Shown one piece after another: positions 648 to 57,379 of a stretch of DNA of 64,000 nucleotides (position 1 is the stretch's first letter; each line of letters starts with the position of its first letter). The notes beneath the pieces were generated by a model that did not search any database, was not told the DNA's origin, and saw only the letters and a program-made list of their open reading frames with translations. Position numbers and translations under genes: made by a program. The stretch comes from Candidatus Woesearchaeota archaeon (GTDB taxonomy: Archaea > Nanobdellota > Nanobdellia > Woesearchaeales > JAZDKJ01): contig JAZDKJ010000006.1 in assembly GCA_043803105.1 (NCBI GenBank), positions 32,001 through 96,000 on the forward strand, given 5' to 3'.

Positions 648-770
648 TTTTGAATAACAAAAGGATGCCCTTTAAGAAGTTTTTGAAACATCACTAGACA
701 TTCTTGCATGAGACTTAAAAGAAAATGCATCCTCATTATGGCAAAAGACCACACCATTCACGGGGTTTTC

Positions 771-34377: not shown

Positions 34378-34956
34378 TTACCTTACTATTTTTTTCAGGT
34401 TATGCCACCAATCGTTAGAATTAGTCTTTTCTATTAATGTCAAGAGTCTTTTCCCACTCTCAGTCTTTATAATTTTCCATGTGTTATCTATCCAGTTTTG
34501 AGCATCTTTATAACCAATCTCTATATACTCTTTTGCTTGGCACGCTGTCTCCAGCAAGTCCGCATCTCTCGCAACCTGTGCCTCCTTGCTCTGGTCGTTT
34601 CGTAATTCTTCGAAAAGCTTTAACAGTTCGTCTGAGGCCTCAACAGGAAGGTTTTCATACTGCTCAAGAACAGCTTTGTGCTTTGCTGCATGAGAATCTA
34701 TGTATCTTTGATTGACTTTGTGAAAATCGTTAAGTCTTGTCTCTGCAACATTGTGAAAAAGGCATTCCAGCACTACTTTTTTCGTATCTGCACCTTCCAA
34801 TCTGGCAAGGACATAGCCAATAAGTGCTGTCCTGAATGAATGCTCTGCAACACTCTCCGGGTCTTTTATGTTCACCAGCCACCAGCCGCTTCTCTTTACT
34901 CTTTTGAGCTGGCCCACCTCGAAGAAGAAATCCACAATCTGTTTTTCGTCTTTCAT
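34378..34956 (-). CDS. HD-domain protein (HDDC2/YfbR-like) with HD changed to HN
   Basis: LKRVKRSGW, ESVAEHSFR, CLFHNVAE and DADLLE. Confidence 0.85.
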   Translation of the reverse strand: MKDEKQIVDFFFEVGQLKRVKRSGWWLVNIKDPESVAEHSFRTALIGYVLARLEGADTKKVVLECLFHNVAETRLNDFHKVNQRYIDSHAAKHKAVLEQYENLPVEASDELLKLFEELRNDQSKEAQVARDADLLETACQAKEYIEIGYKDAQNWIDNTWKIIKTESGKRLLTLIEKTNSNDWWHNLKKIVR

Positions 34957-34964
34957 CTTCTGTC

Positions 34965-35540
34965 CTACCGCGTTATATTCTTCAAGTCATGCCACCATGA
35001 ACTGGAATCAGTACCTTCAATTATCCTAAGTAGTTTTTTCGCAGACTCTGTTTTGAGTAAGCTACCTGCATTGTGAATCCAATCCAATGAGTCTTTATAA
35101 CCAATATCAAGATATTCCTTGTGCTGCACAACATCTTCCAATAAATCAGCATCTCTGGCGATTATCCCTTCTTTTGTAGAATCTATTCCATATTGCTTGA
35201 AAAGTTCTATTGATTCTGCTGCCATTTCTTTTGGCAGCCGCTGCATCTGTTCTTCAAATGCTTGCTTTTCTGCACCCTTTACCTCAAGGTATCTTTGTCC
35301 TATTTTGTGGATGTCATTTAATCTTGCCTCAGGCAAATCCTGAAGCAGGCACATCATTACAACCTTGTAAGGGTCTGCTTTTTCCAGTTTTGCAAGCACA
35401 TACCCAATCACTGCAGCGCGGAAAGAGTGTTCAGCTACTGTATCAGGGTCCTTTATCTTTGCTATCCAGCAACCGCTCCTTTTAACCCTCTTCAGTTGCC
35501 CTGCCTCAAAAAAGAAGTCTACGATGTCTTTCTCTGTCAA
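34965..35540 (-). CDS. HD-domain protein (HDDC2/YfbR-like) with HD changed to QD
   Basis: LKRVKRSG, DTVAEHSFR, CLLQDLPE and DADLLE. Confidence 0.85.
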   Translation of the reverse strand: MTEKDIVDFFFEAGQLKRVKRSGCWIAKIKDPDTVAEHSFRAAVIGYVLAKLEKADPYKVVMMCLLQDLPEARLNDIHKIGQRYLEVKGAEKQAFEEQMQRLPKEMAAESIELFKQYGIDSTKEGIIARDADLLEDVVQHKEYLDIGYKDSLDWIHNAGSLLKTESAKKLLRIIEGTDSSSWWHDLKNITR

Positions 35541-35544
35541 GATG

Positions 35545-36105
35545 TTATCCCCTTTTCATTGCCACATCATAAAGCAGGTCGTCTAATCTCTTCAGATTCC
35601 ACTTGATAGAGTCTGCTTTTTTTCTTAGTTCTCCGTTGCGCAGATCGAATTTCAAGAATTCCTCATAGATCTCCTGCACAAGTTCATGTATTTCATTTGC
35701 AGAATTAAAGTCTTTGTTTATCCCGTCCATCACTGCCTTTCGCACAAGTTCTCCTGTTAGGTCGCACAGCCCAAGAAGATAGTTTTCATCCTCTACTCCT
35801 AGCTCTTTCGGCGTGGGTATTTTCTTGTTGGCCACAAATTCATAGAAGCACATTGCCTCAACAAATTCTTGTTTTGCAACGTTCTGGATATTCGCGTCAA
35901 ATTGTTCTTGAGGCAGTTTTTTGACGAGCGCTTTTATCTCTTTTATGAGCCCTTCTGCTTTTTTCCGGTCACTTCTCTGCAATCCGAAGATTATCTGTTT
36001 TGAGAGGTTGATGATTACCCTTGATGTCTGGATTACTGTTTCCCTTTGTTCCTCGAATCTCTTGAATTCCTGTCTTATGCGCTCAAATTGTTTTTTGTCA
36101 AGCAT
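35545..36105 (-). CDS. Translin/TRAX-family (archaeal C3PO-like) RNase
   Basis: QEFVEA, YLLGLCDLTGELVR and LRKKAD. Confidence 0.88.
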   Translation of the reverse strand: MLDKKQFERIRQEFKRFEEQRETVIQTSRVIINLSKQIIFGLQRSDRKKAEGLIKEIKALVKKLPQEQFDANIQNVAKQEFVEAMCFYEFVANKKIPTPKELGVEDENYLLGLCDLTGELVRKAVMDGINKDFNSANEIHELVQEIYEEFLKFDLRNGELRKKADSIKWNLKRLDDLLYDVAMKRG

Positions 36106-36157
36106 TTTATCTGAAAAACGAGGTGATATTATTTAAACCTATTGCTAGCTTTCCGGA

Positions 36158-36268
36158 GGTTGAATTGCCCTGCCTCACTCTAGTCAACTGGTTCAAGGAG
36201 TTATACTCCCTATACTTACCATCACCAGTGACTAAGTTGCCGTTAGCGTCGTAAACTAAATTGTTTTG
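36158..36268 (-). pseudogene. Truncated remnant of a second Rhs core cassette
   Basis: Encodes QNNLVYDANGNLVTGDGKYREYNSLNQLTRVRQGNST, matching the mature N-terminus of 36953..38239 (38054-38164). No signal peptide and no Rhs core. Confidence 0.75.
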
Positions 36269-36350
36269 GGCACAGTAGAATATCATGATGTTGTGGATGT
36301 ATTCAAATGCACTTTTCATCTCATGCTGTATTTCTTTCCGATGTTCATTT

Positions 36351-36971
36351 TTAAGAAGCAGTCTTGTTTAGTGGTATATAAACCCACACACAGATTATCA
36401 AAGCGTATAACAGTGCAATAATAAAATGTTCTACAGCAGATACTTTGAAATGACTAAGGTTAAGGTCAAATGTTAAGGGAATAAGGTCAAAAGTGATTGC
36501 CGTGAGACATATTGATGCAATTTTCTTCTTTTCTGACCAGGCACGTTGGGTATAGGCTAGATACTTGTTACTAGAAACTAAAAATAAAATCGAGCTTCCA
36601 GACCAGACCAGACCAATTGCAAAGAGATGAATGTTTGTAAAAATTGAGAATAGTAAACAAATCAAACCTACCAGGAACCCGTACTTAGGCTTGGGTTGTA
36701 TTTGGGTGTTTATCAGTCCTGAGCGACTAATAGAGTAAATATAAACAAATAACCACAAAATGAGGCTGGCGGCAACCAAGGGAGTGAGAGTTACTGGCAC
36801 ACTTTTATTGGTGTCACCTAGTATGGATTTTATAAAGATACTTATACTTGCTATAATCCCTAGTGAACAGAACACATAAAATAAGAAGGATATATGTAAA
36901 TAAATCTTTTTCTTCGCCGAATTTTGTGGATGGCTTTTATTTGTAGAGTTATCTAAGCCTTTGTTTTCCAT
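36351..36971 (-). CDS. Multi-pass membrane protein, candidate immunity protein
   Basis: About six hydrophobic segments, AT-rich, and its start overlaps the Rhs toxin stop by 19 nt. Confidence 0.55.
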   Translation of the reverse strand: MENKGLDNSTNKSHPQNSAKKKIYLHISFLFYVFCSLGIIASISIFIKSILGDTNKSVPVTLTPLVAASLILWLFVYIYSISRSGLINTQIQPKPKYGFLVGLICLLFSIFTNIHLFAIGLVWSGSSILFLVSSNKYLAYTQRAWSEKKKIASICLTAITFDLIPLTFDLNLSHFKVSAVEHFIIALLYALIICVWVYIPLNKTAS

Positions 36972-38239
36972 TTAATATTACCTGTATCAGGGTTTATAAA
37001 CCAGATTATATCATTTTGTTCTACTGTTCCAGTACTGCTATGACTTATGTCCTCCCTTATGTTTTTTGCCCTATTTGGATTGCTTACGCTGTATCGGTAC
37101 TCCGATGATTGCACCATTTGGGTCCTGCCGGAAGCGAGTCCGTAGCTGCTAGGTTGAGTATTCACAGTAGATGTCCCTACCATCTTGTTGCTCTCGTCGA
37201 GAGATTTGGAAATGGTTTTTGAACTACACGTGACATAAACTTGTGATTCGCACACTTGATTGTCAAGAGGCCCGTTTCTTAAATCATAAATCGGTTTGGC
37301 ATCATGCATAATCGGTTTTTCCTTAGGTTTGAACGCCTCATTATTGTTAGTGTTAGCTTCATCGGGAGTTCTTGCTGTTGCATAGACGTAAAAAACGAAG
37401 GTCACGATTATTAGTCCAATAGTTACTATCGCTCCGAATTGTCCCATAAATAATGGCCAAGCAGGAGGTATCTGATGTCCCGTTTTATCAATATTTTTAT
37501 AGGGGTTATTTCTTTCAAACGAGTATCTGTTTAGGCTTTGCGGGTCATACACATTCTGTATTACTGTGTCTGGCTGTGTGAATTTTGCCCATTCGGGGTT
37601 GTATTGTCTGAAGTGGAAGTCAAAGTTTGAGGAGAGTGAGTCGAGTTCTTTACCTTCGTAGGTGTACCGAGTTTTTGTTCCTCCTGCAAGGATTTTGCCG
37701 AAGGGCTCGTAGAACGTCTGCTCAATGATGCTTCCGGTGCCGTTGGTCACGACTGCTACACTGCTTTTTTGGTCATTGTGATAGAACAATGTTTTGCCTT
37801 TCGTGAAATTTTTGTCTTTTGCTAATCGGGTGCCGTTGTATTTAATTTCTCCGATGGTTCCTGCGTCGTCTTTTGTGTAGTACGTATCGTTTATTTTTAG
37901 GTAGCCGCTGTTTAGTGCTCCGTATTCTCTGACAAAGTTTTCGTTCACATAAAGGATTATTTTTCTTGGTTCGTTGGTTCCGTCGTAAATTCTTTTAACG
38001 AGAACTCGTTCTTCTGTTGGGTGGTAGATATAGTCTTCCAGGAGGGTTCCTGCGGTTGAATTGCCTTGCCTGACCTTAACGAGCTGGTTGAAGGCGTTGT
38101 ACTCGCGATACTTGCCATCACCAGTAATTAAATTACCGTTCGCATCATAAACTAAGTTCTGCTGCGAAGCAATCGCAACAGGTATGGAAATAACTGTAAG
38201 GCAAAGAAACAAAGCGATGACACTCTTTTTCTTGTTCAT
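36953..38239 (-). CDS. Rhs repeat-associated core protein with own signal peptide and C-terminal putative toxin tip
   Basis: Signal MNKKKSVIALFLCLTVISIPVAIA, then YEPFG, YEGKELD, RQYNPEWAKFTQPD, LNRYSF and NNPYKNIDKTG. Confidence 0.88.
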   Translation of the reverse strand: MNKKKSVIALFLCLTVISIPVAIASQQNLVYDANGNLITGDGKYREYNAFNQLVKVRQGNSTAGTLLEDYIYHPTEERVLVKRIYDGTNEPRKIILYVNENFVREYGALNSGYLKINDTYYTKDDAGTIGEIKYNGTRLAKDKNFTKGKTLFYHNDQKSSVAVVTNGTGSIIEQTFYEPFGKILAGGTKTRYTYEGKELDSLSSNFDFHFRQYNPEWAKFTQPDTVIQNVYDPQSLNRYSFERNNPYKNIDKTGHQIPPAWPLFMGQFGAIVTIGLIIVTFVFYVYATARTPDEANTNNNEAFKPKEKPIMHDAKPIYDLRNGPLDNQVCESQVYVTCSSKTISKSLDESNKMVGTSTVNTQPSSYGLASGRTQMVQSSEYRYSVSNPNRAKNIREDISHSSTGTVEQNDIIWFINPDTGNIKWKTKA

Positions 38240-38250
38240 TTTGATTTAAT

Positions 38251-41200
38251 TCAGGTTATTGTTATTGTGACTAAATTGGACTTGGCTTTGATGCTGTTAT
38301 TGGATATTTTACTGGCGTTGATAAAAAAGAGGTAATCTCTCTTGGTGCCTGTTGCGTTGACTTTCCAGGTTACGTTCTTGCACTCGTTCTGTTGCAAGTC
38401 GACGAGATAGGGGTTAGCGGTTGTGGTGTAGAATGGTGTTTCCCCTTTGGTGGTGGAAACTTTGCCTTTGAGGATGTATGTTATGTTTAGGTATGGCTTG
38501 CTGCCTGTTGAATCTCTGGAATTGAAGTCCACGTCCCCACCTGTAGTAACTAGCTGGCTATTGGTGTAAAGGTAGAAACTTTCATTCATCTTTTTCTGCC
38601 TCACGATGGATGTAACATTCCAGAAAATGTACTGGCTGCTAGTTCCGTGTGCGATGTTAATCTTGTCTGCGGCAGTGTGATTAAATTGGGTTGCGTTGGG
38701 CCTTTTAGCCCACGTGACGCCGGTTTCTGTCCAATTATACGTGTGGTATATGCGGTACACTGAGATGTTAGCACTCGCACCACTGGGAAGGTTATTGGCA
38801 TAGATGTGCAAGTGAAGTCTTGCATTTTCAACTAATGCTTCTCTCGGGATTTGTGAAAGGTTAAACTTAATCAGGGAGTACATCATGGAGGTTGTCGTAT
38901 TCCTGACCATAAGCCTGATGTCAGTACCGTAATTTGTCCGATTATAAGTCGCCTGGCTCCTTATGTAGGCATCACCCAGATTCTTGCTAGAAGTGTCCCG
39001 AATGGTGACTAGGGTAGAATGCTCGCCCCATTTGAATGCTTGTGTCAGCACAGTCTCTGCTGTATCTGAGAGGTCAATCACAGCAGTTTTCTTTTCTTTG
39101 CTAAAGAAATTGACACTGATATCCTTGTTCACGATGTTTCCCGAAGTGTCTCGCGGTAAAGCTGTTGAATTGAACCTGCTGTAAACCCTTAATGGAATGC
39201 CTCTCAAAAGATTCCAGCTTGAAGCTATGCCAACATTCAAAGTGATAGAGGTAAGATTAAAATCAACGACTTCCACAGGAAAGCCAGGGTCCTGTTCAAT
39301 GCTGTATTTTAGTGTGTCTTTCAGACTGTGGGCGGACTCTATTTTTTTCCATGTGCCATCTTCAAGGACAAATCTGGTACCGGAGTAGATCGCTAGGTTG
39401 CAGGAGCTGCCGTCGCAGTGAGTTTCAGTATTGGTTGTGAAGCCTTCTTCGATTGGGTCCAAGGTCAGGTTGATACCCCAACAATCATTCTGTCGGCAGC
39501 AGGCTTGTCCTGTGACGTTGAAGAATCTGAACTGGCTGACAGTTGTGGACTGGTTAGGTTTGATTAATGTTAGCTGGATGGTTGCTGAAGGTCTGGAGAT
39601 TTTGGTTACAACCGAAGGAGTGTGAGGCAGATTACTGTACGAGAAAGTACTGTTATATTTGTCCGAGATAGTCCTTAGCATGTTCCCAATCCTATCGTAC
39701 TGGTAAATGAGTCGCTCGTGCTCCATGCTATTGAAATCAGATATCTTTGTTGTGGTGAGCCTGCTGAGATTGTCGTACTGCATTGAGTACAGTTTATTGT
39801 TCCTAGAGTCATTTATCTGCAGGATATTACCCAGGGAGTCATAACTGTAATTCAAGGCTTGGACTGTGCTTCTTAATCCAGTCGTTCGGCCAAGATTGTC
39901 GAAAGAATATTTTACAGCAATGCCATTGGCAAAAGTTTTGTTGGATTGGCTCCCGAATGCGTTGTAGTTGACGGAATCTAGGAAGCCTTGGGCCTTGGCC
40001 ACTTTACCGATTAGATTGTAACTGTAGTTAAGGTTGGTCTGAGGTAAGTACATCTTTATGACCCTATCGGATGAATCGTAATCGATTGATGTATTAACCC
40101 ACTGCTTGAAGGTGCTTGTAACCGGCATGTAAACAGATTCCTTTATGACCCTTAACCTCTCGCCATAATAATACTTAAAAGAAATCGGCACGGACGGCGA
40201 AGCGTTCAAAGTAATGTTAGATAAAGTTCCTTTGTACTGCACATCATAGAAAAATTTGACTGTGTTGTTAACTACAGACTTCCTAACGACCCTGTTTAAA
40301 GTATCATAGACCAAGGAGATGGTCTTGTTACGACCGTCAGTCTGGTTAATTAGGTTACCATTCAAATCATAGACGTACCTCCATCTGGCCATGTTAGGGT
40401 CCTTGAAACTAGTTTTTCTGCCCAAACTGTCATATTCGAAAACAAATAAGTTACCTTTCGAATCGGTGATGTTCATTAGCAGATCGTCTGCTCGATACCT
40501 ATAGGTAGTATTGTAAATTTCTCTCCCGCCCGTAAAGTTGGTGTTGTACTCCCGAACCTTGATAATCCTGCCGTAGACATCCAGTAAGTAGTCAATTCTG
40601 TTGTGGTTTTCGTCGAATTGACTCACAGTTGTTTTATTGAACAATATAAGGATGGACTTTGCGTTCTGCTTCATTACTTTGGTAGTCCGATCAAGAGCAT
40701 CGTATGTATACGAAATATTGGGACCTGGTAATGGGGTGGCAAGACTGGTCGAATAAGGGTCAAAATAGGGATTTTGTTCAGCCTTAATTCGGAACTTCGA
40801 GTCATAGAAGTAGTTTTTGACGATTTGTTTGGTAGCGGAATATTTGGTTTTGGTTTGTACTACGTTACCGAAGCCATCGTAGATAAAGTAGTCTTCGGAG
40901 TATGAGGTAGCATTGTTCTTGGTTTGCATCCTGATTATTTCCGGTGCTACTCCGTCAAAATAGTATGTGTAGTTCTTTGATGGGCTGATTATGTTGTCAG
41001 GCGGATATATTTCTGTAATCAACCTGTCGCCAACATCATAGTCGAAGTAGTTTATGATGCCGTCGCGTTGTAAGGTAAGCAGGTAGCCAATCGGCAGGTA
41101 GTAATCGTAGAGAGTTTGGTGTCCGAGAGCGTTAAGGTCTTGAGTTTTAAGGGTGCCGGTAGCGTCGTACTGGTAAAAGGTGGGATTGCCTAACGGGTCA

Positions 41201-44046
41201 GTCTTGGAAAGTATGTTTCCGAAGGAATCGTACGTGAATTGTGTCTCTGGATTTGTGCCAAGGCTATTGTAGTTCATTACTTTAGTCAGATCGCCTTTGC
41301 TTACTCCAACTGTCTTGTTGTCATAATAGTAAAATTCTTGTTTAACAATCGTGAGGTTATTCCGGCCTAGTAGGCTGTAGTTTGAAGGTTTGCTGACCAC
41401 AAAGGACGTCAAATTGTAAACATAACCAAAGACTTCAAATTTCTCGTCACCGGTAAATTGTGCGTTTCCCAGATGCATAATTGATACTGGGTTGCTGTAG
41501 TAATCGTAAGAGAAGGATGTATTGATGGTAACTGGTTGCGGGTTACCGTCAAATATGGATGAAGATGTTCGTCTTAAGAAGATAGTGCGGTCATCCGTAT
41601 AGTCAAAGAAATTTGAGTCTTCTTTTAATTTTATGCTTGAATTGTCGTACATGATTGTCTTGTATTCTCGGCCTTTCAAGACCTTGTCTTGGTGGAATAA
41701 GTGAGTTCTGACTGATTTGTCCGGGAGGCTTTCGTTTACTTGGCCGAAGCCCCGGAATTCTTGGTCTTGGTAACTGTATTTTCCTCCAGAATAATAGTAG
41801 GAATTCGTTGAAATGATGGAAAAGGGCTGTCCTAATGAGTTGTTGAGGGTCAGGTTCCCTACTATCCAAAGATTGAATCCTAAGTCCCAACCGTTGTTTG
41901 CCAGGGTTGACTGTGCGTACCCGATGTTGGTTTTTCCGCCGTAAGCGTTAGTTACTTGTTTGAGCAGGAAGGCACTGTCAGCCTTTTTGATGAACGTAAC
42001 ATTTTCGTAGCCGGTGCCCTGGTAGGCAACAACAATATCTGGGTAACCGTCACCGTTGACGTCAGCGATCCTGCGCCCGATATTGTAGCCTGCGGAGGTG
42101 AATCGTACTGGGCTCAGCCAGCCTGCTTTGGAGACCCATCCGGTGCCGTTATTGAGTTTGGTGTTGGTGTTGAAGCTTGCGTTGTAGGAGATGATTGTGC
42201 AGTTCTCAGTACTGTTCTTTAGTTCCATGCAGGTTAGGTTGATTTCTCTCTTCGTGATGTTGCTGAAGAAATTTTGTAGGATGTCCACGAGCTTGTCGCC
42301 GTTGATGTCCATGAATCTTACTCCTAAGTCTGGTCTGTCTCCTGGGTAGTCTGTGAAGGTTAGGTTTGGCCTGAAACCTGTGTTGTTGAGCCAGCCTGAA
42401 CCGTTGTTCAGCCATGCGCTGCCCGGGGTTCCGCCTTTGATTAGGTCGGGGAGGGCGTCGTTGTTAAGGTCCAATATTCTTAAACTGTTGTCCTTGCTGT
42501 CGTTTGTTGTCAAGAAGTCCGGGAGAAGCCATTCGGAAACGTTTTTCCATCCGGTTCCGTTGTTTAGGTAGGTTCTTTTAACATTTGGAGATCTTGCAAC
42601 AGTTATGTCTGTTCGCCCGTCGCCATTAAGGTCTACAAACTGTACTCCGAGGTCTTTTCCTTCGCTGTTAACAAAATATTCGGGAATTGGCCATTGCGTA
42701 GTGGAATTTGTCCACCCTGTGCCATTATTTAGGAATACTGCTTTTCCGGTGTTGTTTTGGGAGATTATGATATCTATTAGTCCGTCAGAGTTTATGTCTT
42801 CAAACCTTGTCCCTTTGTCCTTGCCCTCACTGTCGACAATATTTATACTGGCCGGAACAACCAGCATTGAGCTGTTTGCCCAGCCGTCAATTTTGTTGTT
42901 TATACTAGTTCTGTGGGGACTGCCTGCTTTGGCTTTTATTAAGTCAGGAAAGCCGTCATTGTTTACGTCTAGGAGTCTGACCCCGAAATCCTGGCCTTGA
43001 GCAGAATTTGAGGAAAAGGCAAAGTCTGCCGGGACAACCCATTTGTTTGTGGTGTTGTCAAAACCCTGTATTGAGTCGTAGTACTGGAGCCGGATGGTGT
43101 GTACCCGGGTGTCGCCAAATCCAAGATAGGTTATGTTTGCAAGAGATGATAGTGAATTCCAATCATTGAGGGTTTTGTAACCTAGGGCGTATTTCCTCAC
43201 CGGAGTTTCGTCGTTGTAGATGACAGTGATTTGTTTTAGTCTTCTGCTTGTGTCAACAACGTTTCCTTGCTCGTAGGCCATTCTGCGGTCAGGTCTGGCT
43301 TGACTTTCGTATGTGAAGGTGATGAGTTTTAGACGGTCAGTGTTGTACGTTATATTATCTAGGTATGCTGTTCCTTTGTCTTCCGGAAAGGGATTTTGTT
43401 TGTAGGCATAAAGTATTGTGTTGTTATGCATGTCTTTAACTAAATCCAGGTTCCATCTGACGCTATAGTTTCTTCCGGAGTTGGAGCCAAGTAAGGAGTC
43501 TGCAGTGTAGCCGAACCTGTATTGCATCCCGTTGACTGTTGTTACCAAAAAGTATGTTTTTCCATTGTGACTTAAGTTTTGTATTCTAAGTTGCCGCGGA
43601 TTGATTTCCTTTTTGAAAGCAGTTCCGTTAAAGCCGAACTTGTATCTATTGTTATTGATGTTTAGGATGAAATAGTCGTCTCGGGTGTTGTCTAGACTGT
43701 AGTTTACGTGTCTTAATATAGAATTTTCCGATACGGACCATCCTGCTCCCAGAATTCCTGGTCTTTCGGTTCCTGATTGGCTGTTGTATGTTAGGGAGAG
43801 TGTTGGCTGCATGCCTGCGGCACCGGGCGGGACTTTGATGTCATAAGTGTATGTGCCGGCACCGAGGTATAGTTCGGTGGTAAAAGTTCCGAAGGTGTCT
43901 AGTTTTGGCGTTGAGCCGACGCTTGGCTTGTGAAGGTAAGGCTTGTATTCATCCGCAGCCAAGGCAAGAGAGGATAACAGAATCAGCAAAATGAGAAGTT
44001 TTGCTATTCGAGAAAATGCCTTCCCCGAAAAATAGAACTGTACCAA
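38251..44046 (-). CDS. Secreted SpvB-like/FG-GAP/YD-repeat shell protein with C-terminal DNRLRE-like domain and no Rhs core
   Basis: Signal peptide, PTLSLTYNS..G.LGAGWS, repeated D.N.DG..D, EFRGFG, many YD..G repeats, then DAYI..NYG..LIKFNLS..W.ETGVTW..KPYLNITY. Confidence 0.88.
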   Translation of the reverse strand: MVQFYFSGKAFSRIAKLLILLILLSSLALAADEYKPYLHKPSVGSTPKLDTFGTFTTELYLGAGTYTYDIKVPPGAAGMQPTLSLTYNSQSGTERPGILGAGWSVSENSILRHVNYSLDNTRDDYFILNINNNRYKFGFNGTAFKKEINPRQLRIQNLSHNGKTYFLVTTVNGMQYRFGYTADSLLGSNSGRNYSVRWNLDLVKDMHNNTILYAYKQNPFPEDKGTAYLDNITYNTDRLKLITFTYESQARPDRRMAYEQGNVVDTSRRLKQITVIYNDETPVRKYALGYKTLNDWNSLSSLANITYLGFGDTRVHTIRLQYYDSIQGFDNTTNKWVVPADFAFSSNSAQGQDFGVRLLDVNNDGFPDLIKAKAGSPHRTSINNKIDGWANSSMLVVPASINIVDSEGKDKGTRFEDINSDGLIDIIISQNNTGKAVFLNNGTGWTNSTTQWPIPEYFVNSEGKDLGVQFVDLNGDGRTDITVARSPNVKRTYLNNGTGWKNVSEWLLPDFLTTNDSKDNSLRILDLNNDALPDLIKGGTPGSAWLNNGSGWLNNTGFRPNLTFTDYPGDRPDLGVRFMDINGDKLVDILQNFFSNITKREINLTCMELKNSTENCTIISYNASFNTNTKLNNGTGWVSKAGWLSPVRFTSAGYNIGRRIADVNGDGYPDIVVAYQGTGYENVTFIKKADSAFLLKQVTNAYGGKTNIGYAQSTLANNGWDLGFNLWIVGNLTLNNSLGQPFSIISTNSYYYSGGKYSYQDQEFRGFGQVNESLPDKSVRTHLFHQDKVLKGREYKTIMYDNSSIKLKEDSNFFDYTDDRTIFLRRTSSSIFDGNPQPVTINTSFSYDYYSNPVSIMHLGNAQFTGDEKFEVFGYVYNLTSFVVSKPSNYSLLGRNNLTIVKQEFYYYDNKTVGVSKGDLTKVMNYNSLGTNPETQFTYDSFGNILSKTDPLGNPTFYQYDATGTLKTQDLNALGHQTLYDYYLPIGYLLTLQRDGIINYFDYDVGDRLITEIYPPDNIISPSKNYTYYFDGVAPEIIRMQTKNNATSYSEDYFIYDGFGNVVQTKTKYSATKQIVKNYFYDSKFRIKAEQNPYFDPYSTSLATPLPGPNISYTYDALDRTTKVMKQNAKSILILFNKTTVSQFDENHNRIDYLLDVYGRIIKVREYNTNFTGGREIYNTTYRYRADDLLMNITDSKGNLFVFEYDSLGRKTSFKDPNMARWRYVYDLNGNLINQTDGRNKTISLVYDTLNRVVRKSVVNNTVKFFYDVQYKGTLSNITLNASPSVPISFKYYYGERLRVIKESVYMPVTSTFKQWVNTSIDYDSSDRVIKMYLPQTNLNYSYNLIGKVAKAQGFLDSVNYNAFGSQSNKTFANGIAVKYSFDNLGRTTGLRSTVQALNYSYDSLGNILQINDSRNNKLYSMQYDNLSRLTTTKISDFNSMEHERLIYQYDRIGNMLRTISDKYNSTFSYSNLPHTPSVVTKISRPSATIQLTLIKPNQSTTVSQFRFFNVTGQACCRQNDCWGINLTLDPIEEGFTTNTETHCDGSSCNLAIYSGTRFVLEDGTWKKIESAHSLKDTLKYSIEQDPGFPVEVVDFNLTSITLNVGIASSWNLLRGIPLRVYSRFNSTALPRDTSGNIVNKDISVNFFSKEKKTAVIDLSDTAETVLTQAFKWGEHSTLVTIRDTSSKNLGDAYIRSQATYNRTNYGTDIRLMVRNTTTSMMYSLIKFNLSQIPREALVENARLHLHIYANNLPSGASANISVYRIYHTYNWTETGVTWAKRPNATQFNHTAADKINIAHGTSSQYIFWNVTSIVRQKKMNESFYLYTNSQLVTTGGDVDFNSRDSTGSKPYLNITYILKGKVSTTKGETPFYTTTANPYLVDLQQNECKNVTWKVNATGTKRDYLFFINASKISNNSIKAKSNLVTITIT

Positions 44047-44242: not shown

Positions 44243-44812
44243 ATGGTATCGACTTTTAGAGATATACTAATATTTTTCGATAAGATCGGTGTCTATGATG
44301 TTATCCTTCCCTTTCTGCTTGTTTTTACGATTGTCTTTGCAATACTTGAGAAGACAAAAGTCTTCGGCACAGAAGAGGTTGCGGGCAAGAAGCAGACAAG
44401 GAAAAACATCAACGCGATGGTTGCCTTTGTCATCAGTTTCTTTGTTATTGCCTCAAGCAAGCTTGTCGAGGTCATAACAACTGTGTCTTCCTGGATGGTC
44501 ATACTCCTTTTGCTCTCAGTCTTGTTTCTTATACTCATCGGCTCGTTCATGAAAGAAGGAGAGGGTGTTTTCCTACAGGGTGGCTGGCAGACGCTTTTCA
44601 TGATTATAATGTTTGTTGGTGTCGTTGCCATTTTCCTTGAGGCCATCAAGACTGACAAGGGAGAGCCCTGGCTGGAGTTTGTCATCAGGTTTGTTGTCGA
44701 AAACTTCACAAGCACAGCGGTTGCTTCAATTGTGCTTATACTTGTCATCATTTTGTTTATGTGGTTCATCGTGCATGAGCCAAAGCCTAAGGCTGTTGAG
44801 AAAAAAGAATGA
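44243..44812 (+). CDS. Multi-pass membrane protein, paralogue 1 of a triplet
   Basis: LPFLLVFTIVFAILEKT...NAMVA. TTTATATA box at about 44211. Confidence 0.75.
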   Translation: MVSTFRDILIFFDKIGVYDVILPFLLVFTIVFAILEKTKVFGTEEVAGKKQTRKNINAMVAFVISFFVIASSKLVEVITTVSSWMVILLLLSVLFLILIGSFMKEGEGVFLQGGWQTLFMIIMFVGVVAIFLEAIKTDKGEPWLEFVIRFVVENFTSTAVASIVLILVIILFMWFIVHEPKPKAVEKKE

Positions 44813-44823
44813 GGTGTTAGAAC

Positions 44824-45411
44824 ATGGTTATCAGTGGGAGTTTCCAAGAAGCTTTGCAAAACCTGGAGGACCTCGGATTGTCTGATGTACTTCTTCCTTT
44901 CCTTTTGGTCTTCACGATCATCTTTGCTGTGCTGCAGAAGACCAATATTCTTGGCAAGGACAAGCGCAACTGGAACATAATTGTTGCCCTGGTTATTTCA
45001 CTTTCTGTTGTTATTCCGCACGTCACAGGCACTTATCCTGCTGACGGCGACATTGTAACGATAATGAATCACTCTCTGCCTAATGTCTCGATTGTGATAG
45101 TTGCGATCGTGATGTTCCTGATACTGATTGGCCTTCTCGGTGGCGAAGCCAAGTGGATGGGTGGCTCTCTTTCCGGATGGATTGTGATCCTGTCAGCGAT
45201 ACTCGTGTTTTTCATATTCGGCAGGTCTGCTGGCTGGTTTGAGACATTGCCAAATTGGCTTCAGTGGCTGGACAATTCAGAAACGCAAGCCTTGATTATT
45301 GTCATCCTGGTGTTTGGCATAATCATCTGGTTCATCACAAAAGATGACAAGAAGGAAGGCCCGCGCACGAAGTTCATGAGCGACATTGGTGACTTTTTCA
45401 AGGGAAAATAA
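44824..45411 (+). CDS. Multi-pass membrane protein, paralogue 2 of a triplet
   Basis: LPFLLVFTIIFAVLQKT...NIIVA. SD GAGGTG upstream. Confidence 0.75.
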   Translation: MVISGSFQEALQNLEDLGLSDVLLPFLLVFTIIFAVLQKTNILGKDKRNWNIIVALVISLSVVIPHVTGTYPADGDIVTIMNHSLPNVSIVIVAIVMFLILIGLLGGEAKWMGGSLSGWIVILSAILVFFIFGRSAGWFETLPNWLQWLDNSETQALIIVILVFGIIIWFITKDDKKEGPRTKFMSDIGDFFKGK

Positions 45412-45969
45412 ATGGCTACTCCAATCGACTTTGGCTTTTTGGCAAAGTTTGGGGACATTTTTCCCTTTTTATTTGTCTTGATTGTTGTCTATGCAGCCTT
45501 GGTTAAGATAAAGGTTTTTGGTGACAACAAGACCCTTAATGTGCTCATCGCTCTTGTTCTTGCACTGATAACAATGCTCTCCCGGACCGCAAAGGATTCT
45601 ATAATGCTCATGGCTCCCTGGTTTGTCTTGTTTTTTTTTCTCTTGGTCTTCCTGTCTATTGCCTATATGATGTTTGGCGCAAAGACTGAGGATTTCTACA
45701 GTGTGCTCAAGAATTACTCTTCTGCAATTTACTGGGTGCTTGCGATTGTCATCATGATATGGCTTGGCTCCATCACCTCAGTTCTCTCGCAGCAGGGTGG
45801 GGTTGGCACAACTACAACAACCACCACAGTCAATGCTTCAGGTTCTGTGATGTCTTCTAATCAGCAGAGCGCTTTCTGGGCTACGCTTACTCATCCAAAG
45901 GTCTTGGGTTTGGCTTTGATATTGTTGATTGCGACCTTTACAATTCAAAGGCTTACCTTAAGCCAATAA
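45412..45969 (+). CDS. Multi-pass membrane protein, paralogue 3 of a triplet
   Basis: FPFLFVLIVVYAALVK...NVLIA, with a Thr-rich loop. Confidence 0.72.
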   Translation: MATPIDFGFLAKFGDIFPFLFVLIVVYAALVKIKVFGDNKTLNVLIALVLALITMLSRTAKDSIMLMAPWFVLFFFLLVFLSIAYMMFGAKTEDFYSVLKNYSSAIYWVLAIVIMIWLGSITSVLSQQGGVGTTTTTTTVNASGSVMSSNQQSAFWATLTHPKVLGLALILLIATFTIQRLTLSQ

Positions 45970-45998: not shown

Positions 45999-46643
45999 TC
46001 AAGGCCTCTTCTTTATCCCCTTTGTTATCCTTGACAGTTCGCTTACATTCTCTGTGAATGTTGGCAATATTTGCTGGAACACCTTTTCCATTGCCTTTAT
46101 TTCAGTGCCCACGTTGAGAATGTTCTGGTCATATTCAGCTATCTTTCCAATTAGCGCCTTGTGCAATTTGTCAAAGCTCTCCTTTAGGTCTTTCATCTCC
46201 TGCTCGTTCTTGAGTAGTCTTGCCTCTGTCTTGTCTTTCCAATCCACTATCTTGTTGATGTTCTTTATGAGCTCGTCCCATTTTTCATCGATTATGGTCT
46301 CTGCCATCTCTTCGATGCGCTCCCTCTCGCCTCCAAACATTGCCTGGGATGGGTATTGCTGGCCCTGGTCATAGCCTTGCTCTTGTGGCATAGGTTGCTG
46401 CATCTGCATTTCCTGGTATCCCTGCTGTGGAGCTCCTGTTTGCAGGTCAGCCTGGCTTAATGCATCAAAAATCCTTGCAGAATCAAATCCATCCCGTTGA
46501 AGTGTTTGTACTATCTGGTTGTTTGTTAAGCCTTGTTGCCTCATCATCATGACTTGGTCCACAGGCAAGCCGCTCCCTGGTTGCGGATTGTATTGTGCTG
46601 GTGCGCTGCCTTGGCTCTTCTTTCCAAAATTGAATAGGGCCAT
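45999..46643 (-). CDS. Hypothetical protein: HTH-like N-domain, Gln/Pro linker and coiled coil
   Basis: GLTNNQIVQTLQRDGF, then IEEMAETIIDEKW and heptad repeats. Confidence 0.7.
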   Translation of the reverse strand: MALFNFGKKSQGSAPAQYNPQPGSGLPVDQVMMMRQQGLTNNQIVQTLQRDGFDSARIFDALSQADLQTGAPQQGYQEMQMQQPMPQEQGYDQGQQYPSQAMFGGERERIEEMAETIIDEKWDELIKNINKIVDWKDKTEARLLKNEQEMKDLKESFDKLHKALIGKIAEYDQNILNVGTEIKAMEKVFQQILPTFTENVSELSRITKGIKKRP

Positions 46644-46687
46644 CTTTGTTTCACCGCTTTTTAGCTAGAACATGCAGTCGACGATAT

Positions 46688-47095
46688 TTAAACCTTTCGT
46701 TCAGCTAGCATCTCCTCAATTATCTTTTCTACCTCTCTTCTCGTCACAAAATTCACCGGCGCCCACATGTTGATGTATTTCTGCAGCACATTGACCTCTT
46801 CTTTTTTTGCGCAGAGCCTTATCTCCTTGATTATTAACAGCAAATTGTTTTGCATATCATCCAGGATGTGCCTAAGTTCGTTGATATCCATGTTTACCGT
46901 CTTTATCTCTGTGATGTTTTTCTTGTTGTAGCTTAGCATGTTCTGGTCTGTTACCTGCATCTTTCTTCGCAGGTTTGTGTACTGCTCTTCGAGTATCCTG
47001 AGCCTTCGGGTTAGTAAGGTTACCTCGCTTAGTTTCTCATTTTTGTCTTCTGCGAACATGGTTCGCTTCTTGTCGTCAGGGATAAGGCTATCCAT
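46688..47095 (-). CDS. Coiled-coil hypothetical protein
   Basis: RRLRILEE and LQKYINMW.P..FVTR. ATG 47095 is preceded by GAAGGGA (track start 47161). Confidence 0.7.
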   Translation of the reverse strand: MDSLIPDDKKRTMFAEDKNEKLSEVTLLTRRLRILEEQYTNLRRKMQVTDQNMLSYNKKNITEIKTVNMDINELRHILDDMQNNLLLIIKEIRLCAKKEEVNVLQKYINMWAPVNFVTRREVEKIIEEMLAERKV

Positions 47096-47233
47096 GACAA
47101 GTCCCTTCTCTTGGCAGTTTATTAAATTTATGTTCCCATACTGTAGTGGTACATGCACCATCGAAAGCTTTATTAAGCACTATATTATAAAATGTACAAA
47201 ATAAATAAAAAAATATAAAATATATTTTATAAT

Positions 47234-47383
47234 ATGAAGCGTCCTATTAGCGCAACGATTGATGAGGGTCTGTTAGATTGGGTTGATTCCCAATTGGCTG
47301 ACACTAAACGGTATAGGAACAAGTCTCATCTAATTGAGATTGCGCTTGAGCTGTTAAAGTCTGAGGTGCAAAAAAAGAGGTAG
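47234..47383 (+). CDS. Ribbon-helix-helix regulator (49 aa)
   Basis: Below the track cut-off. Translation: MKRPISATIDEGLLDWVDSQLADTKRYRNKSHLIEIALELLKSEVQKKR. Ends 3 nt before the pilus ATPase gene. Confidence 0.8.
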   Translation: MKRPISATIDEGLLDWVDSQLADTKRYRNKSHLIEIALELLKSEVQKKR

Positions 47384-47386
47384 ATC

Positions 47387-49669
47387 ATGGCTTTGTTTTC
47401 GTCTGAAAAAGTATGCAGTTACGAGCTCGTTCACCAGGGTGAGGACACGATCCTCCGGGTCAATTGCGAGGAGTGCTCCCGCATCCCTAGTGTTGAGGAT
47501 AATGGTTTGTGCATGGCAAAGACCATTGAGAAGCTTAGCGAGGCTGGCAATGTCACCAAGCTCGTCTTTGCTCAGAAGCGGGATTATGAGTATGATTATG
47601 CCCAGACCCAGATGCTCTTAGAGGTTGCAAGGCTCTACACAAAGCTTGTGAGGCAGAGGATTGTAAGTTATGATGCCCTTTCCCAGAAGCTTCCGAGAAC
47701 TGGCACTGACGATAAGTATGCTGAGATACAGAACATTGTCTATCATCTCTTGAAGAGTGATCCCCTTGGCGCCTATGTTGAGTTGAAGCGCATTCTAAGA
47801 AGGGAGAAGATTGAGCTTGAATCCCTGGCTGATCCAAACATGGTAAACAGCCAGCAAAAGTACATTTCTGTGATATCCTATCTGATCAATGTGCTGGACA
47901 AGACCCGGCTTGTTACTGTCGCCAAGCCCTATCTTGCAGGCTATCAGGTCGGCGACCGCGACATTTACAGACGGCTTTTCTCTCCCACAATCAAGCCCGA
48001 TTTCATGTATACAAAGCTCATGGCTAATTATCCTGTTGATGGTGAGGAGATGGACAGCTACGACGTAAACGGCGCCGAGATCACAATCTTTGGCCTTCCG
48101 GATACGACACAGGTGCTCTATCATGTTCTTCCACCTGAATTCAAGCTTAGCGAGGACAAGTACGACCTGCTTGATATTGCTAGGAAGATCCTCTCAGAGC
48201 ACAAGCCCAACAAGTCTGAGTTCGTAGATCCAGAGCGCATGCGCCATGTTTTTTCTTCAGTTGGTTCGGACCTTCTTGAGGAGCTCTCTGCCAACAGGGG
48301 CATGAGGCTAAGGGATTCTGAACTTCAGGAGTTGACTGAGATCCTTGTTAGGTATACAGTTGGTTTCGGCCTTATCGAAGTTCTGCTAAATGATGAGAAG
48401 GTTCAGGATATTACGATTAATAGCCCGATGGGCCAGATTCCCATGTTTCTTGTTCATTCTGATTATGATGACTGCAAGACAAATATCATCCCCACTATGA
48501 CTGAAGCAGAGTCTTGGGCCTCCAAGATGAGGATGATTTCCGGTCGACCACTTGATGAGGCAAATCCCATCCTAGACACCGAGCTTGTCTTGCCAGGTGC
48601 TAATGCTCGCGTCTGTATCGTTTCACCCCCTTTGAACCCCAGCGGCCTTGCTTATGCCTTCAGGCGCCACAGAGACAAGCCATGGACTTTGCCGCTTTTC
48701 ATTAATAACAGGATGATGAACCCGTTGGCTGCTGGGGTCTTAAGCTTCGTGATTGACGGTTCAAGGACAATACTTGTTGCAGGAACAAGGTCTGCAGGCA
48801 AGAGCTCCCTTCTCGGTAGCATGCTTGTTGAGATTATGCGTAAGTACAGGATAATAACTATTGAGGATACTCTTGAGCTTCCATGTGACCAGCTGCGAAA
48901 GCTCGGTTACAACATCCAGTCCTTGAAGGTTGCCTCAGCCCTGTCAAAGGGCGGTGCCGAGGTGCCTGCTGATGTGGGCATCAGGACCACCTTGAGGATG
49001 GGTGACTCTTGCCTGATTGTCGGTGAGGTGCGTTCAACCGAGGCTCGATCCTTGTATGAGGCTATGCGCGTCGGAGCTTTGGCAAATGTTGTTGCAGGCA
49101 CAATTCACGGTGATTCCCCGTACGGTGTATTCGACCGTGTGGTTAACGATCTCAACGTCCCGAAGACGAGTTTCAAGGCAACTGATATTATTGTTGTTGC
49201 AAACCCTGTGAGAAGCGCTGACGGATTGCACAGGTGGAGGCGCATCACGCAGATAACTGAGGTGCGAAAGCACTGGCAGGATGACCCGATGGCTGAGAAC
49301 GGTTTTGTCGATCTTTTCAAGTACGACGCAAGGACAGACCAGCTTGAGCCTTCAAAAGATTTGATGAATGGTGAGTCAGAGATTCTCAAGTCCATAGCAG
49401 GGAATGTCAAGGAATGGGCTGGCAACTGGGATGCTGTCTGGGAGAACATAATGCTGCGCACCCAGATAAAGCAGGCTATTGTTGATTCTGCCAACACCCT
49501 GCGCATGCCTGACCTGCTTGAGGCAAAATTTGTGATCCAATGCAATGACCAGTTTCACCGGATTACCGAGCAAGTTAAGGAAGAGTTTGGTACTGTCGAC
49601 GCCAAGCGCGTTTTGTTCAACTGGACGAGCTGGTTGAATAGGACAGTCAAAAAAATCAATTTGAGCTAA
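47387..49669 (+). CDS. Type II/IV secretion (type IV pilus) ATPase, VirB11/TadA/FlaI family
   Basis: GTRSAGKSS, TIEDTLEL, LRMGD..IVGEVR and GTIHG. Confidence 0.92.
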   Translation: MALFSSEKVCSYELVHQGEDTILRVNCEECSRIPSVEDNGLCMAKTIEKLSEAGNVTKLVFAQKRDYEYDYAQTQMLLEVARLYTKLVRQRIVSYDALSQKLPRTGTDDKYAEIQNIVYHLLKSDPLGAYVELKRILRREKIELESLADPNMVNSQQKYISVISYLINVLDKTRLVTVAKPYLAGYQVGDRDIYRRLFSPTIKPDFMYTKLMANYPVDGEEMDSYDVNGAEITIFGLPDTTQVLYHVLPPEFKLSEDKYDLLDIARKILSEHKPNKSEFVDPERMRHVFSSVGSDLLEELSANRGMRLRDSELQELTEILVRYTVGFGLIEVLLNDEKVQDITINSPMGQIPMFLVHSDYDDCKTNIIPTMTEAESWASKMRMISGRPLDEANPILDTELVLPGANARVCIVSPPLNPSGLAYAFRRHRDKPWTLPLFINNRMMNPLAAGVLSFVIDGSRTILVAGTRSAGKSSLLGSMLVEIMRKYRIITIEDTLELPCDQLRKLGYNIQSLKVASALSKGGAEVPADVGIRTTLRMGDSCLIVGEVRSTEARSLYEAMRVGALANVVAGTIHGDSPYGVFDRVVNDLNVPKTSFKATDIIVVANPVRSADGLHRWRRITQITEVRKHWQDDPMAENGFVDLFKYDARTDQLEPSKDLMNGESEILKSIAGNVKEWAGNWDAVWENIMLRTQIKQAIVDSANTLRMPDLLEAKFVIQCNDQFHRITEQVKEEFGTVDAKRVLFNWTSWLNRTVKKINLS

Positions 49670-49672
49670 AAA

Positions 49673-57100: not shown

Positions 57101-57379
57101 GTTTTTCATTTGTTCTGCTAAAACCCTAAGCGATTTGAGATACTCATCTACATGATTGAACAATTCTTCCAGATTGTTATACTGAAAGTGTCTTTTCCAA
57201 GTGTAACCTGGCATTTTTTTCATTCGCGTTTCAATCAATTTAGATACATCTATCAATGATTGAATCGACTCTTTGTGCCAGAACCAGCTCTTGGGGATCT
57301 TATACTTTGGTGATGTCAACAAATCGTGCAGCTTTTGGATCTCAATAACAGTTTCTTGGATATTTCCATTCGGCGGCAT
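54113..57379 (-). CDS. Large (1088 aa) helical hypothetical protein with a conserved-looking C-terminal alpha/beta domain
   Basis: Long ORF. C-terminal NPIKILQMG...SCL..DG.N.....NALDVNKRVLY....ARRLI. Confidence 0.7.
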   Translation of the reverse strand: MPPNGNIQETVIEIQKLHDLLTSPKYKIPKSWFWHKESIQSLIDVSKLIETRMKKMPGYTWKRHFQYNNLEELFNHVDEYLKSLRVLAEQMKNSTSISTDAQSQLQEKMQRLVCQLDSAFLLNIRRLHLLQSMYKKDQYFERRKWLLKNGYNQFANPFLTKILLENWNLVEKVKKIIGPAQFYSDHYWYVWLCLVPFEDIIFKDVPPEEIKNLRDQFSAYGKNPEEVYQDPYFQENLRDFYVQWTAKKTKMLEATVVRLRETLILLATIIRGGTTGEHLGRTVCQEQIPRVRKEIKSPEDLHLISSVAEKFFLFDERAPCFVLTAVFEDSGYLFNNYHGQLFDTLFAVMKSYKSAGLRVDELGYALWLCLRDWRSFACDLSFTEKNLKRLIRVYKKWQFAEPGTEMDFFSFCQPISRLSKPLLEQSDIDLLLSLCEEITDEELLQMLLAREQREGVRQQLPQIIEAARSTKYPKLLFRSIMKMTGQRLSTALEHKTLLGYLEFNVSKYGPNIDVYEGNLISILPFLTNLNEVDYLWQVLGDFDTNLLASLFSVLKILQPKHIASFQTFIENGGKEVVQTLKDFNESPREELLNLCSKMVEKVDPSTNAEVIRIFNSCFRFMSAEVEHSRVKLRQMKYLDKISSSIFEHFGDYIINLMEQSPKNFMRVLFNIAHLTILNEDISRELLVLARACRSYRLFVSKGNKESLNPADIERVYLFLTSQLSKKPKNLDKLRKNIEKFNTQNEKSAFEYINKVLMDLSIEYFNALTSQKVRDAFEKYCGVPLPAELDNEEDITDVLQIAVKCHPGQNREPAKRLVQEICLKNTYPFKRLPQAYPYNQQANIEYMGKMKSWGIDMNIWVEGFKKEYLANLTDFSANTEKIIGEHREEIVRHFREAGLEVKEDEFDKRLTDLKDKQDLAKDIAGHLNAIKGLQGKTQFIQNARRVTVYTEQNPIKILQMGNVVGGSCLATDGSNSWTTVTNALDVNKRVLYCFDKAGDIMARRLIAMTNQGKIIQLGVYNNYPELDLDSVFEEYTLELAQRCGTTTANEANVNDRQDVATLLADRWYAGTPVIKFNSEHKTMPFKKAA

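Follow-up and report, generated by a model that had tools for sequence, protein, structure and literature searches.

A stretch of 64,000 nucleotides from a Candidatus Woesearchaeota archaeon (assembly GCA_043803105.1, contig JAZDKJ010000006.1, positions 32,001 to 96,000 of the forward strand), referred to as the window throughout, carries three closely packed open reading frames (ORFs) on its minus strand, at 38251-44046, 36953-38239 and 36351-36971. The first two encode the parts of a YD-repeat shell of the Rhs/Tc type and the third a membrane protein. P0001 denotes the shell protein, P0002 the small chain and P0003 the downstream membrane protein; L-numbers denote fetched loci of relatives.

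38251..44046, minus strand: shell gene P0001, 1931 amino acids, TTG start; TcB-like N-terminal part and YD shell, lectin-type tail, no Rhs core
38240..38250, minus strand: spacer of 11 nucleotides that separates the shell gene's stop from the ATG of the small gene, which is in another frame
36953..38239, minus strand: small chain gene P0002, 428 amino acids; predicted signal peptide, last YD hairpins, Rhs core and tip
36351..36971, minus strand: downstream gene P0003, 206 amino acids, about five transmembrane-like segments, 19-nucleotide overlap with the small gene; candidate immunity protein

The TTG start of the shell gene has GGGGGA just ahead of it. This gene is present as a single copy in the genome (1.56 Mb, 13 contigs, 96.5% complete), and the neighbouring genes are archaeal housekeeping genes (MCM, HerA, Mre11-like, XPD-like helicase, GatB, AspRS and TGT). 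The closest relatives of the shell and small genes were found in records titled Pacearchaeota, Woesearchaeota, Nanoarchaeota or Nanoarchaeia; some records of relatives carry the labels Methanosarcinales or bacteria, which are given as deposited and unverified. A domain search revealed no TcA, type VI secretion system (T6SS) or injection families among the 33 ORFs of the window. The TcA families PF18276 and PF03538 had no match in the genome as a whole, which is weak evidence because control genomes gave no match either. Read-through of a TGA codon joining the two ORFs was set aside, as they lie in different frames.

The domains of the shell protein upstream of its tail are the following.

43954..44046, minus strand: signal-peptide-like N-terminus, residues 1 to about 31 (heuristic call)
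43393..43863, minus strand: SpvB-like domain, residues 62-218; PF03534, E 5.5e-9
41977..43029, minus strand: FG-GAP beta-propeller region, about residues 340-690 (approximate limits); PF13517 (FG-GAP_3), E 1.4e-18, and PF01839
41704..42081, minus strand: TcdB_toxin_midN domain, residues 656-781; PF12256, E 1.2e-17
39601..41679, minus strand: YD-repeat shell wall, residues 790-1482, ending in FSYSNLPHTPS

Signal peptides of both chains were judged by a heuristic of hydropathy and charge. The N-terminus of P0001 consists of K/R residues, LLILLILLSSLALA and AD, in this order, and the consensus of the shell family at this end is MK..L..L...AD.YKPYLH. The D.N.DG..D motifs of the FG-GAP region are conserved as invariant columns of the family alignment. 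The YD repeats were recognised by RHS_repeat (PF05593, E 2e-20) and YD_repeat_2x (TIGR01643, E 2e-13), and they finish with ...YQYDRIGNM...FSYSNLPHTPS at about residue 1478. Residues 790-1482 were modelled as a beta-hairpin spiral with a confidence (pLDDT) of about 80-90; structure alignment with Rhs, Tc and teneurin shells gave Tse15 as the best match of this wall (Z 16.7). Pfam and TIGR domain searches found no Rhs core in P0001.

The core is encoded by the small gene.

38165..38239, minus strand: signal-peptide-like start of the small chain, extending to about residue 24/25, with a putative cut between VAIA and S; helix 2-26 in the model (heuristic call)
37475..38164, minus strand: conserved YD and Rhs-core part, residues 26-255; core domain 177-255 with D232-P-Q-S-L and D251-K-T-G-H

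P0002 begins with MNKKK, a hydrophobic stretch and VAIA followed by S. Its YD unit LVYDANGNL lies in a stretch matched by RHS_repeat (residues 31-61, E 0.0013, under the Pfam cut-off), and residues 177-255 match Rhs_assc_core (TIGR03696) over positions 1-76 of its 76, with E 3.6e-14 and 53 bits versus a cut-off of 32.5. The model shows about 11 confident strands at residues 43-185 (pLDDT 80-93). The putative cutting motifs D232-P-Q-S-L and D251-K-T-G-H are 14 residues apart (17 in Rhs1); of the 46 small proteins aligned, all have D251 and G254 and at least 90% keep D232. In Rhs1 the catalytic aspartate is located in the second DPLGL motif and the chain is cut after this motif, as described in PMC8636562. 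In the window, the proline of the second DPxGL-type motif is replaced by lysine.

A sequence-only reading of this DNA had proposed a shell gene with a signal peptide, an SpvB-like start, FG-GAP-like and YD repeats and a DNRLRE-like end instead of an Rhs core, followed by a small gene with its own signal peptide which resumes with the next YD unit and runs through the Rhs core into an unrecognised tip of about 170 residues that opens with a hydrophobic helix, then an overlapping membrane protein gene. ORF calls and domain searches placed all these elements at 36351..44046, with the export signals called heuristically and the tip measuring 173 residues. Its statement that the window holds no T6SS, TcA or injection genes likewise agrees with the domain search of the 33 ORFs.

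More distant, single-chain relatives reveal how the two chains belong together. In P0145, P0142 and P0149 the motif ...YDSIGNM...Y..PHA(P/V/L)T is followed after 6-8 residues by Y.YDANGNL; these proteins follow P0001 as far as residues 1475-1483 and, from its residue 31 onwards, P0002. The chains of the window finish and start at this same point, with ...LPHTPS and SQQNLVYDANGNL, respectively. Fold alignment of the two chains, which had been modelled separately, gave adjoining ranges on the same references. On the TcdB2-TccC3 fusion, residues 790-1482 of P0001 align to 867-1920 (Z 9.7) and residues 23-235 of P0002 to 1921-2139 (Z 8.3-8.9); on Rhs1 (7pq5), the wall of P0001 occupies 414-1090 (Z 11.3) and P0002 1093-1299 (Z 8.0). 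The ranges abut in both of these independent references, in agreement with the sequence evidence, although the Z scores of the small chain are moderate and repeats can slide. Based on the single-chain relatives and the separate models, one canonical YD shell has been divided between the shell gene and the small gene. It is cut between the ...PH(T/A)PS motif and the next Y-x-YDANGNL hairpin; a lectin-type module of about 450 residues (CBM96 in the window) has been added at the cut, and a predicted signal peptide has been put ahead of the second half.

This is not the division known from Tc toxins, as the sequence-only reading had also stated. The N-terminus of TcC (YenC2 residue 6, TccC2 residue 8) maps to about residue 994 of P0001 and the break of the window to about 1480, so the archaeal break is located about 490 residues past the junction of TcB and TcC. 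Residues 23-235 of P0002 align to YenC2 455-672 and TccC2 435-646, and the small chain corresponds only to the last ~215 residues of the conserved part of TcC (YenC2 455-672).

The module at the break comprises the C-terminal end of the shell protein.

38254..39600, minus strand: C-terminal extension of the shell protein, residues 1483-1931, about 450 amino acids; Ig-like sandwiches and CBM96
38476..38982, minus strand: CBM96/DNRLRE carbohydrate-binding module (CBM), residues 1689-1857; CBM96 E 2.1e-23 and DNRLRE_dom E 3.1e-23 on one stretch

The domain assignment was corroborated by the fold, since the CBM96 region superimposes on the chondroitin-sulfate-binding CBM 8wab_B (Z 11.1, rmsd 3.9, 149 residues aligned). 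The tail also matches Ig-like sandwiches in fold comparison (Z about 10) and, weakly, the Disaggr_repeat family. A CBM96-type tail is common to the window, L017 and part of L011, and homology of the window tail to those of L001-L003 was obtained by tblastn with query residues 14-1930. In 19 of 30 compared shell proteins the tail forms one conserved family of about 420 residues which has no Pfam name and only weak PKD matches. Four proteins (P0125, P0126, P0128 and P0129) carry the extension found in the shell protein of the window fused ahead of the small-chain part, behind their own signal peptide, and two others (P0124 and P0098) have a Laminin_G_3 domain ahead of this part. It follows from these sequences that the module is placed between the halves of the shell, with the break of the chain to one side of it or the other; P0125, P0126, P0128 and P0129 carry the tail on the small-chain side. 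A glycan-binding role of the shell tail is suggested by its domain names and folds. Directly upstream of shells with the unnamed ~420-residue tail, 11 loci encode secreted Laminin_G_3 proteins and 9 loci Ig-like ones; such loci are L012, L015, L016, L018, L025, L030, L032, L034, L036 and L043. Unlike these loci, the window has neither a Laminin_G_3 nor an Ig-like secreted protein upstream.

Relatives of the small chain were searched in a length range of 235-749 residues, and longer relatives at 750-2140 residues with E<=1e-10. The searches yielded 476 and 26 proteins, respectively. The best 120 of the 476 nearly all measure 390-490 residues and match P0002 only over its first ~255 residues; 95 of them have a hydrophobic segment preceded by K/R directly ahead of YD.NGNL, and 13 more begin inside this segment, which resembles late start calls. 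In public records these relatives go under 'hypothetical' or 'RHS repeat-associated protein'. Species genomes were scanned as well; they yielded 299 encoding stretches, from which 66 loci were fetched. A shell gene is present in 37 of these 66 loci: in 20 the small gene begins 1.2-1.4 kb past the end of the shell homology, after the ~420-residue tail, in 14 it is located upstream of the shell gene, and three have other arrangements. In addition, 17 small genes share 4 nucleotides with the end of a preceding ORF, stop codon included, that encodes 496 or more residues. The closest shell relatives, in L001, L002, L003 and L017, share 45-52% identity over residues 6-1931, including the CBM96 tail. 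A phylum sample of 301 genomes, whose related members do not count as independent, contained the small chain in 43 (38 of 225 genera), the shell in 29 and both in 27; the two genomes with a shell only hold a fragment at a contig end and a match to the tail alone.

These distributions bear on the possibility that the two ORFs are remnants, without joint function, of a single-chain Rhs gene broken by mutation or insertion. Rhs loci rearrange often, the genome contains two relics of small genes (described below), and recombinant fusions exist, such as the single-chain protein of L018 joined at its YDSNGNL unit. However, neither ORF is damaged: the second possesses a start and a predicted signal peptide of its own, and the first continues into a folded tail of about 450 residues rather than a truncation. 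The design is moreover repeated in dozens of genomes, with 4-nucleotide overlaps typical of coupled genes. Decay or a frameshift is very unlikely because the design is conserved; as the sequences compared show, the split is a lineage-wide design in many Woese- and Pacearchaeota-type genomes and not damage.

Whereas the shell-forming part is conserved, the part downstream of the core is highly variable.

36956..37474, minus strand: variable tip, residues 256-428, 173 amino acids; orphan without family, low-confidence model
37370..37462, minus strand: hydrophobic helix opening the tip, residues 260-290; helix 264-288 in the model

Median pairwise identity among the 46 aligned small proteins is 54% over residues 28-255 versus 11% in the tip, and 52 tips fell into 31 clusters. 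Core-end motifs were missed by the pattern used in 14 of 117 homologues, which were left out, and 103 tips were counted. Their lengths range from 71 to 243 residues (median 191), and 66 of them, the window included, have a transmembrane-like helix within 30 residues of the core, while 37 do not. The tip of the window was modelled as disordered except for helix 264-288, with a polar tail after the hydrophobic segment. Searched against 1.84 billion representatives, it recovered no sequence but its own; none of the 120 homologues listed is related to it, and an Atlas structure search gave no usable lead (best score 0.81, TM-score at most 0.31). P0003, for its part, has no relative and no domain family in sequence and domain searches. 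The downstream ORFs of relatives have a median length of 133 residues, and 43 of 51 contain at least one transmembrane-like segment. Tips and downstream ORFs vary together: among 1326 pairs of loci, 25 are similar in the tip, 17 in the downstream ORF and 11 in both (Fisher p 1e-16). This establishes a linked pair, not yet a functional one, because adjacent DNA is co-inherited. With membrane-protein neighbours that co-vary with the tip in relatives, P0003 can be regarded as a candidate immunity protein.

Small genes also occur in arrays and as remnants. Arrays of 2-5 small genes (L004, L009, L012 and L023) include 5'-truncated copies without a signal peptide, and modules of a 3' fragment of the shell gene, a small gene and a membrane gene were found in L012, L018 and L040. 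The window itself contains a remnant just past the membrane gene.

36107..36319, minus strand: relic of a second small-chain gene, P0123, 70 amino acids; 71% identity to P0002 residues 19-66

This relic keeps NLVYDANGNLVTGDGKYREYNSLNQL, the first YD unit, behind a degenerate signal peptide, and it is truncated after about 55 residues. A second relic is located on contig 2 of the same genome at about 118.9 kb (L069:1402-1650, minus strand) as an 82-residue ORF that matches P0002 45-86; it adjoins a PEP-utilising-enzyme-like ORF. The proposal of exchangeable small cassettes, made from the window alone, gains support from the arrays, the truncated copies and the relic in the window. The sequence-only proposal as a whole would have been at odds with a small ORF lacking a predicted signal peptide, with homologues that are always single chains or with invariant tips; instead, the small ORF and most of its relatives carry signal-peptide-like segments, small relatives far outnumber longer ones (476 versus 26) and the tips are hypervariable. 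Four truncated copies (L004:4673, L004:11571, L009:6616 and L009:8315) share a similar start of about 35 residues (QTLHPSQ...V.V...F/ALG) which is foreign to the family. L004 and L009 are unrelated loci; this start may represent a conserved junction or a DNA element at the cassette borders.

Another possibility is a YD shell that carries no effector. The best sequence match of P0002 in the PDB is a bacterial teneurin-like protein (TLP, 9pt5; E 3.8e-5), and the same fold is shared by TLP (9pt5/9ifo) and teneurins: P0002 30-254 corresponds to TLP 1927-2143 by sequence and P0001 790-1484 to TLP 1280-1941 by fold. One could accordingly regard the locus as an adhesin, a surface shell which attaches to glycans and whose tip is no effector and varies because it is unconstrained. 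The lectin tail of the shell protein and the disordered, family-less tip would suit such a role. An unconstrained tail, however, would not hold a typical length, co-vary with the next gene or persist in multi-copy arrays. Teneurins and TLP, unlike the system of the window, are single chains without cassette polymorphism, and teneurins leave their C-terminal domain outside the shell (PMC8636562, as far as its description goes), whereas the residues of the cutting motif are conserved here and an enclosed tip is proposed. An adhesin without effector is consequently unlikely.

We favour the interpretation that the locus encodes a two-chain capsule of the Rhs/BC type which acts as a polymorphic toxin system of a DPANN-type archaeon without a TcA or T6SS partner, with a probability of roughly 0.6. 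In this scheme both chains would be exported unfolded by Sec, like WapA of Gram-positive bacteria, and outside the cell the small chain would add its ~11 beta-strands to the open edge of the shell. Its core would plug the shell, enclose the tip and cut after D251-K-T-G-H255. The CBM96 tail would dock the capsule on a glycan of another cell's envelope, the released tip, hydrophobic helix first, would act on the target membrane, and the overlapping protein P0003 with its five predicted transmembrane segments would protect the producer. Cassettes of a small gene and a protection gene would be swapped by recombination in the conserved 5' part. That the tip is a toxin is suggested by the kept cutting motif and by toxin domains in the tip position of three of nine scanned longer relatives (Ntox28, Tox-REase-9 and a barnase-type Ribonuclease). 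Two steps of this scheme have precedents in the sources cited: WapA, an Rhs toxin made as one chain, leaves the cell by Sec and folds only then (PMC12704120), and Tse5 is a hydrophobic Rhs toxin that is encapsulated (PMC10684867).

Several observations weigh against this capsule. The tip and P0003 of the window are both orphans, and no toxin family was found in the tips of 107 small relatives. That tip and neighbour vary together is also expected from plain co-inheritance, and related genomes are not independent. Structurally, the core part of P0002 (193-256) was modelled at low confidence when folded alone; the Z scores of the small chain are moderate (7.9-8.9), and repeats can slide. As to gene organisation, L001, L002, L003 and L017 have overlapping genes in the order small, membrane and shell gene, unlike the window; the trio is nevertheless kept though its order varies, because these loci hold all three genes. 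Four further loci have a solitary small gene with 10 kb free on either side. The signal peptides on which the proposed export depends are heuristic calls for both chains. Finally, a hydrophobic helix of about 27 residues begins about 5 residues after the predicted cut and would be expected to stop transfer by Sec, which clashes with full export and encapsulation.

This last point leads to another interpretation, in which the small chain is a type I membrane protein of the producer: the YD and core part would lie outside the cell, helix 260-290 would span the membrane and the variable tail would reach into the cytoplasm. Rather than a released toxin, the shell and its lectin tail would constitute a host-contact or pore-forming organelle held at the surface, and the downstream protein would be a partner in the same membrane. 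In 66 of 103 tips, that of the window included, a hydrophobic helix comes right behind the core. It is only about 5 residues away from the predicted cut in the window, and stop-transfer at such a helix during Sec export would leave the tail in the cytoplasm of the producer. The same topology is described for SPEARE of Nanohaloarchaeota, in which laminin-G and adhesion domains, a BC-toxin-like domain, a C-terminal transmembrane segment and a cytoplasmic domain follow one another and the outer and inner parts were recovered in different size fractions, according to PMC6642349. Relatives of the window system co-encode secreted Laminin_G_3 and Ig-like proteins, and 43 of 51 downstream ORFs encode membrane proteins, irrespective of a helix in the tip. 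On the other hand, no positive-inside bias was detected, as the mean number of K+R in the 15 residues after the helix is 1.81 versus 1.83 expected, and the window has one K/R and three D/E at this position. Moreover, 37 of 103 tips have no helix in their first 30 residues, in longer relatives the tip position is taken by known toxin domains of the soluble nuclease type, and truncated, signal-less copies in arrays characterise toxin cassettes rather than anchors. In solved Rhs and Tc shells the end of the core faces the cavity. A helix 5 residues past the cut would hence be unable to reach the membrane if the shell closes. On balance, we consider an anchored device of this kind somewhat unlikely.

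The proposed two-chain capsule shares features with several known systems and differs from each. Like TcB-TcC (TcdB2-TccC3 and YenB-YenC2), it combines SpvB, FG-GAP propeller, TcdB_midN and YD wall in P0001, builds the shell from two gene products and places the Rhs core and a variable C-terminal region on the second; TcB-TcC is also among the best fold matches of both chains. Unlike TcB-TcC, it has the break about 490 residues further along, signal-peptide-like segments on both chains, a lectin module at the break and no TcA family match in its genome (controls likewise silent), and it belongs to an archaeon. Its second chain measures 428 residues, while 97.2% of TcC proteins have 851-1050 according to PMC7861908.

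With Rhs proteins and WapA the system has in common the YD shell, an Rhs core with a putative DP..G-type cutting motif, a hypervariable tip, an adjacent putative protection gene and extra downstream cassettes; Sec export, proposed here for both chains, is described for WapA in PMC12704120. It differs in that the shell comes from two genes, in the lack of PAAR, VgrG or cell-wall-anchor domains in domain searches of the window chains, and in tips of close relatives that match no known toxin family (0/107). C-terminal displacement is a known route of rhs diversification, as set out in PMC2935791; in the window a whole small gene, predicted signal peptide included, forms the exchangeable unit and not just a 3' gene end. 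SPEARE, likened here by its description only, joins lectin or adhesion domains to a BC-toxin-like domain, a transmembrane segment and a C-terminal domain, also in a DPANN archaeon. As described in PMC6642349, it is one chain of up to 8,553 residues with domains of the serine-protease and restriction-enzyme type, whereas the window has chains of 1931 and 428 residues and an orphan tail.

Taken singly, the BC split, Sec-exported Rhs proteins, cassette exchange and a BC-like domain in one DPANN protein are already known. What appears to be new is their combination with the position of the break, two predicted signal peptides, a lectin module at the break, the exchange of whole small genes, the wide spread in one archaeal phylum and tips that are nearly all unnamed. 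This combination was not found in the searchable literature, in which one paper cites the BC-toxin structure for SPEARE; a survey by Makarova et al. 2019 (mBio), outside that scope, may list related proteins. The survey reportedly sorts archaeal toxin systems by delivery component and is said possibly to include archaeal Rhs-type proteins already.

The remaining part of the window contains further genes of interest. Three tandem paralogues of about 190 residues (44243-45969, plus strand) are divergent from the shell gene, have several hydrophobic segments each, share a D(V/L)(I/L)LPFLLVFTI motif and match no Pfam family. They are followed at 45999-51814 by a pilus- or archaellum-like assembly locus consisting of two coiled-coil-like ORFs on the minus strand, a T2SSE-type ATPase of 760 residues (47387-49669) and a family-less ORF of 713 residues (49673-51814). 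Three large ORFs may encode additional surface proteins: 26297-31906 (plus strand, 1869 residues, only a weak CARDB match), 54113-57379 (minus strand, 1088 residues, no family) and 58669-61407 (plus strand, 912 residues, MopE and PKD domains). ARAGORN called a tRNA-Pro(tgg) at 60591-60668 (plus strand) inside the 912-residue ORF, where Rfam gave no tRNA at gathering score; hence the tRNA call is spurious, or else a part of the ORF is. Two tandem HD_3/YfbR-like phosphohydrolase genes (34378-35540, minus strand) are followed by a Translin-family gene (35545-36105). An ORF of 275 residues at 708-1535 (plus strand) has a weak LAGLIDADG_3 match (E 3e-4, under the cut-off).

For the question how DPANN archaea attach to other cells, feed on them or fight them, this locus offers a defined, widespread and compact set of a shell, a small chain and a membrane partner. 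It demonstrates that an Rhs/BC shell can be encoded in two pieces away from the junction of TcB and TcC, both with predicted export signals, which bears on whether a toxin shell can close in the extracellular space and in what manner. The tips form a large set of proteins without family and are candidates for new effectors, either membrane-active or specific to archaea. With CBM96 in cis in the window and Laminin_G_3 in trans in relatives, the lectin module may point to a glycan that selects the target. One can tentatively go further and speculate, as a possibility that we hold with some doubt, that this is a lineage-wide, TcA-independent capsule built outside the cell from two Sec-exported chains, with a break that flanks the lectin module on either chain, and that the small chains constitute a large and almost entirely uncharted pool of effectors against archaeal envelopes, many of them membrane-inserting. 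If true, such a capsule would be a main tool of conflict between DPANN archaea and their hosts or among DPANN archaea themselves, and a natural example of a toxin shell that is completed after export.

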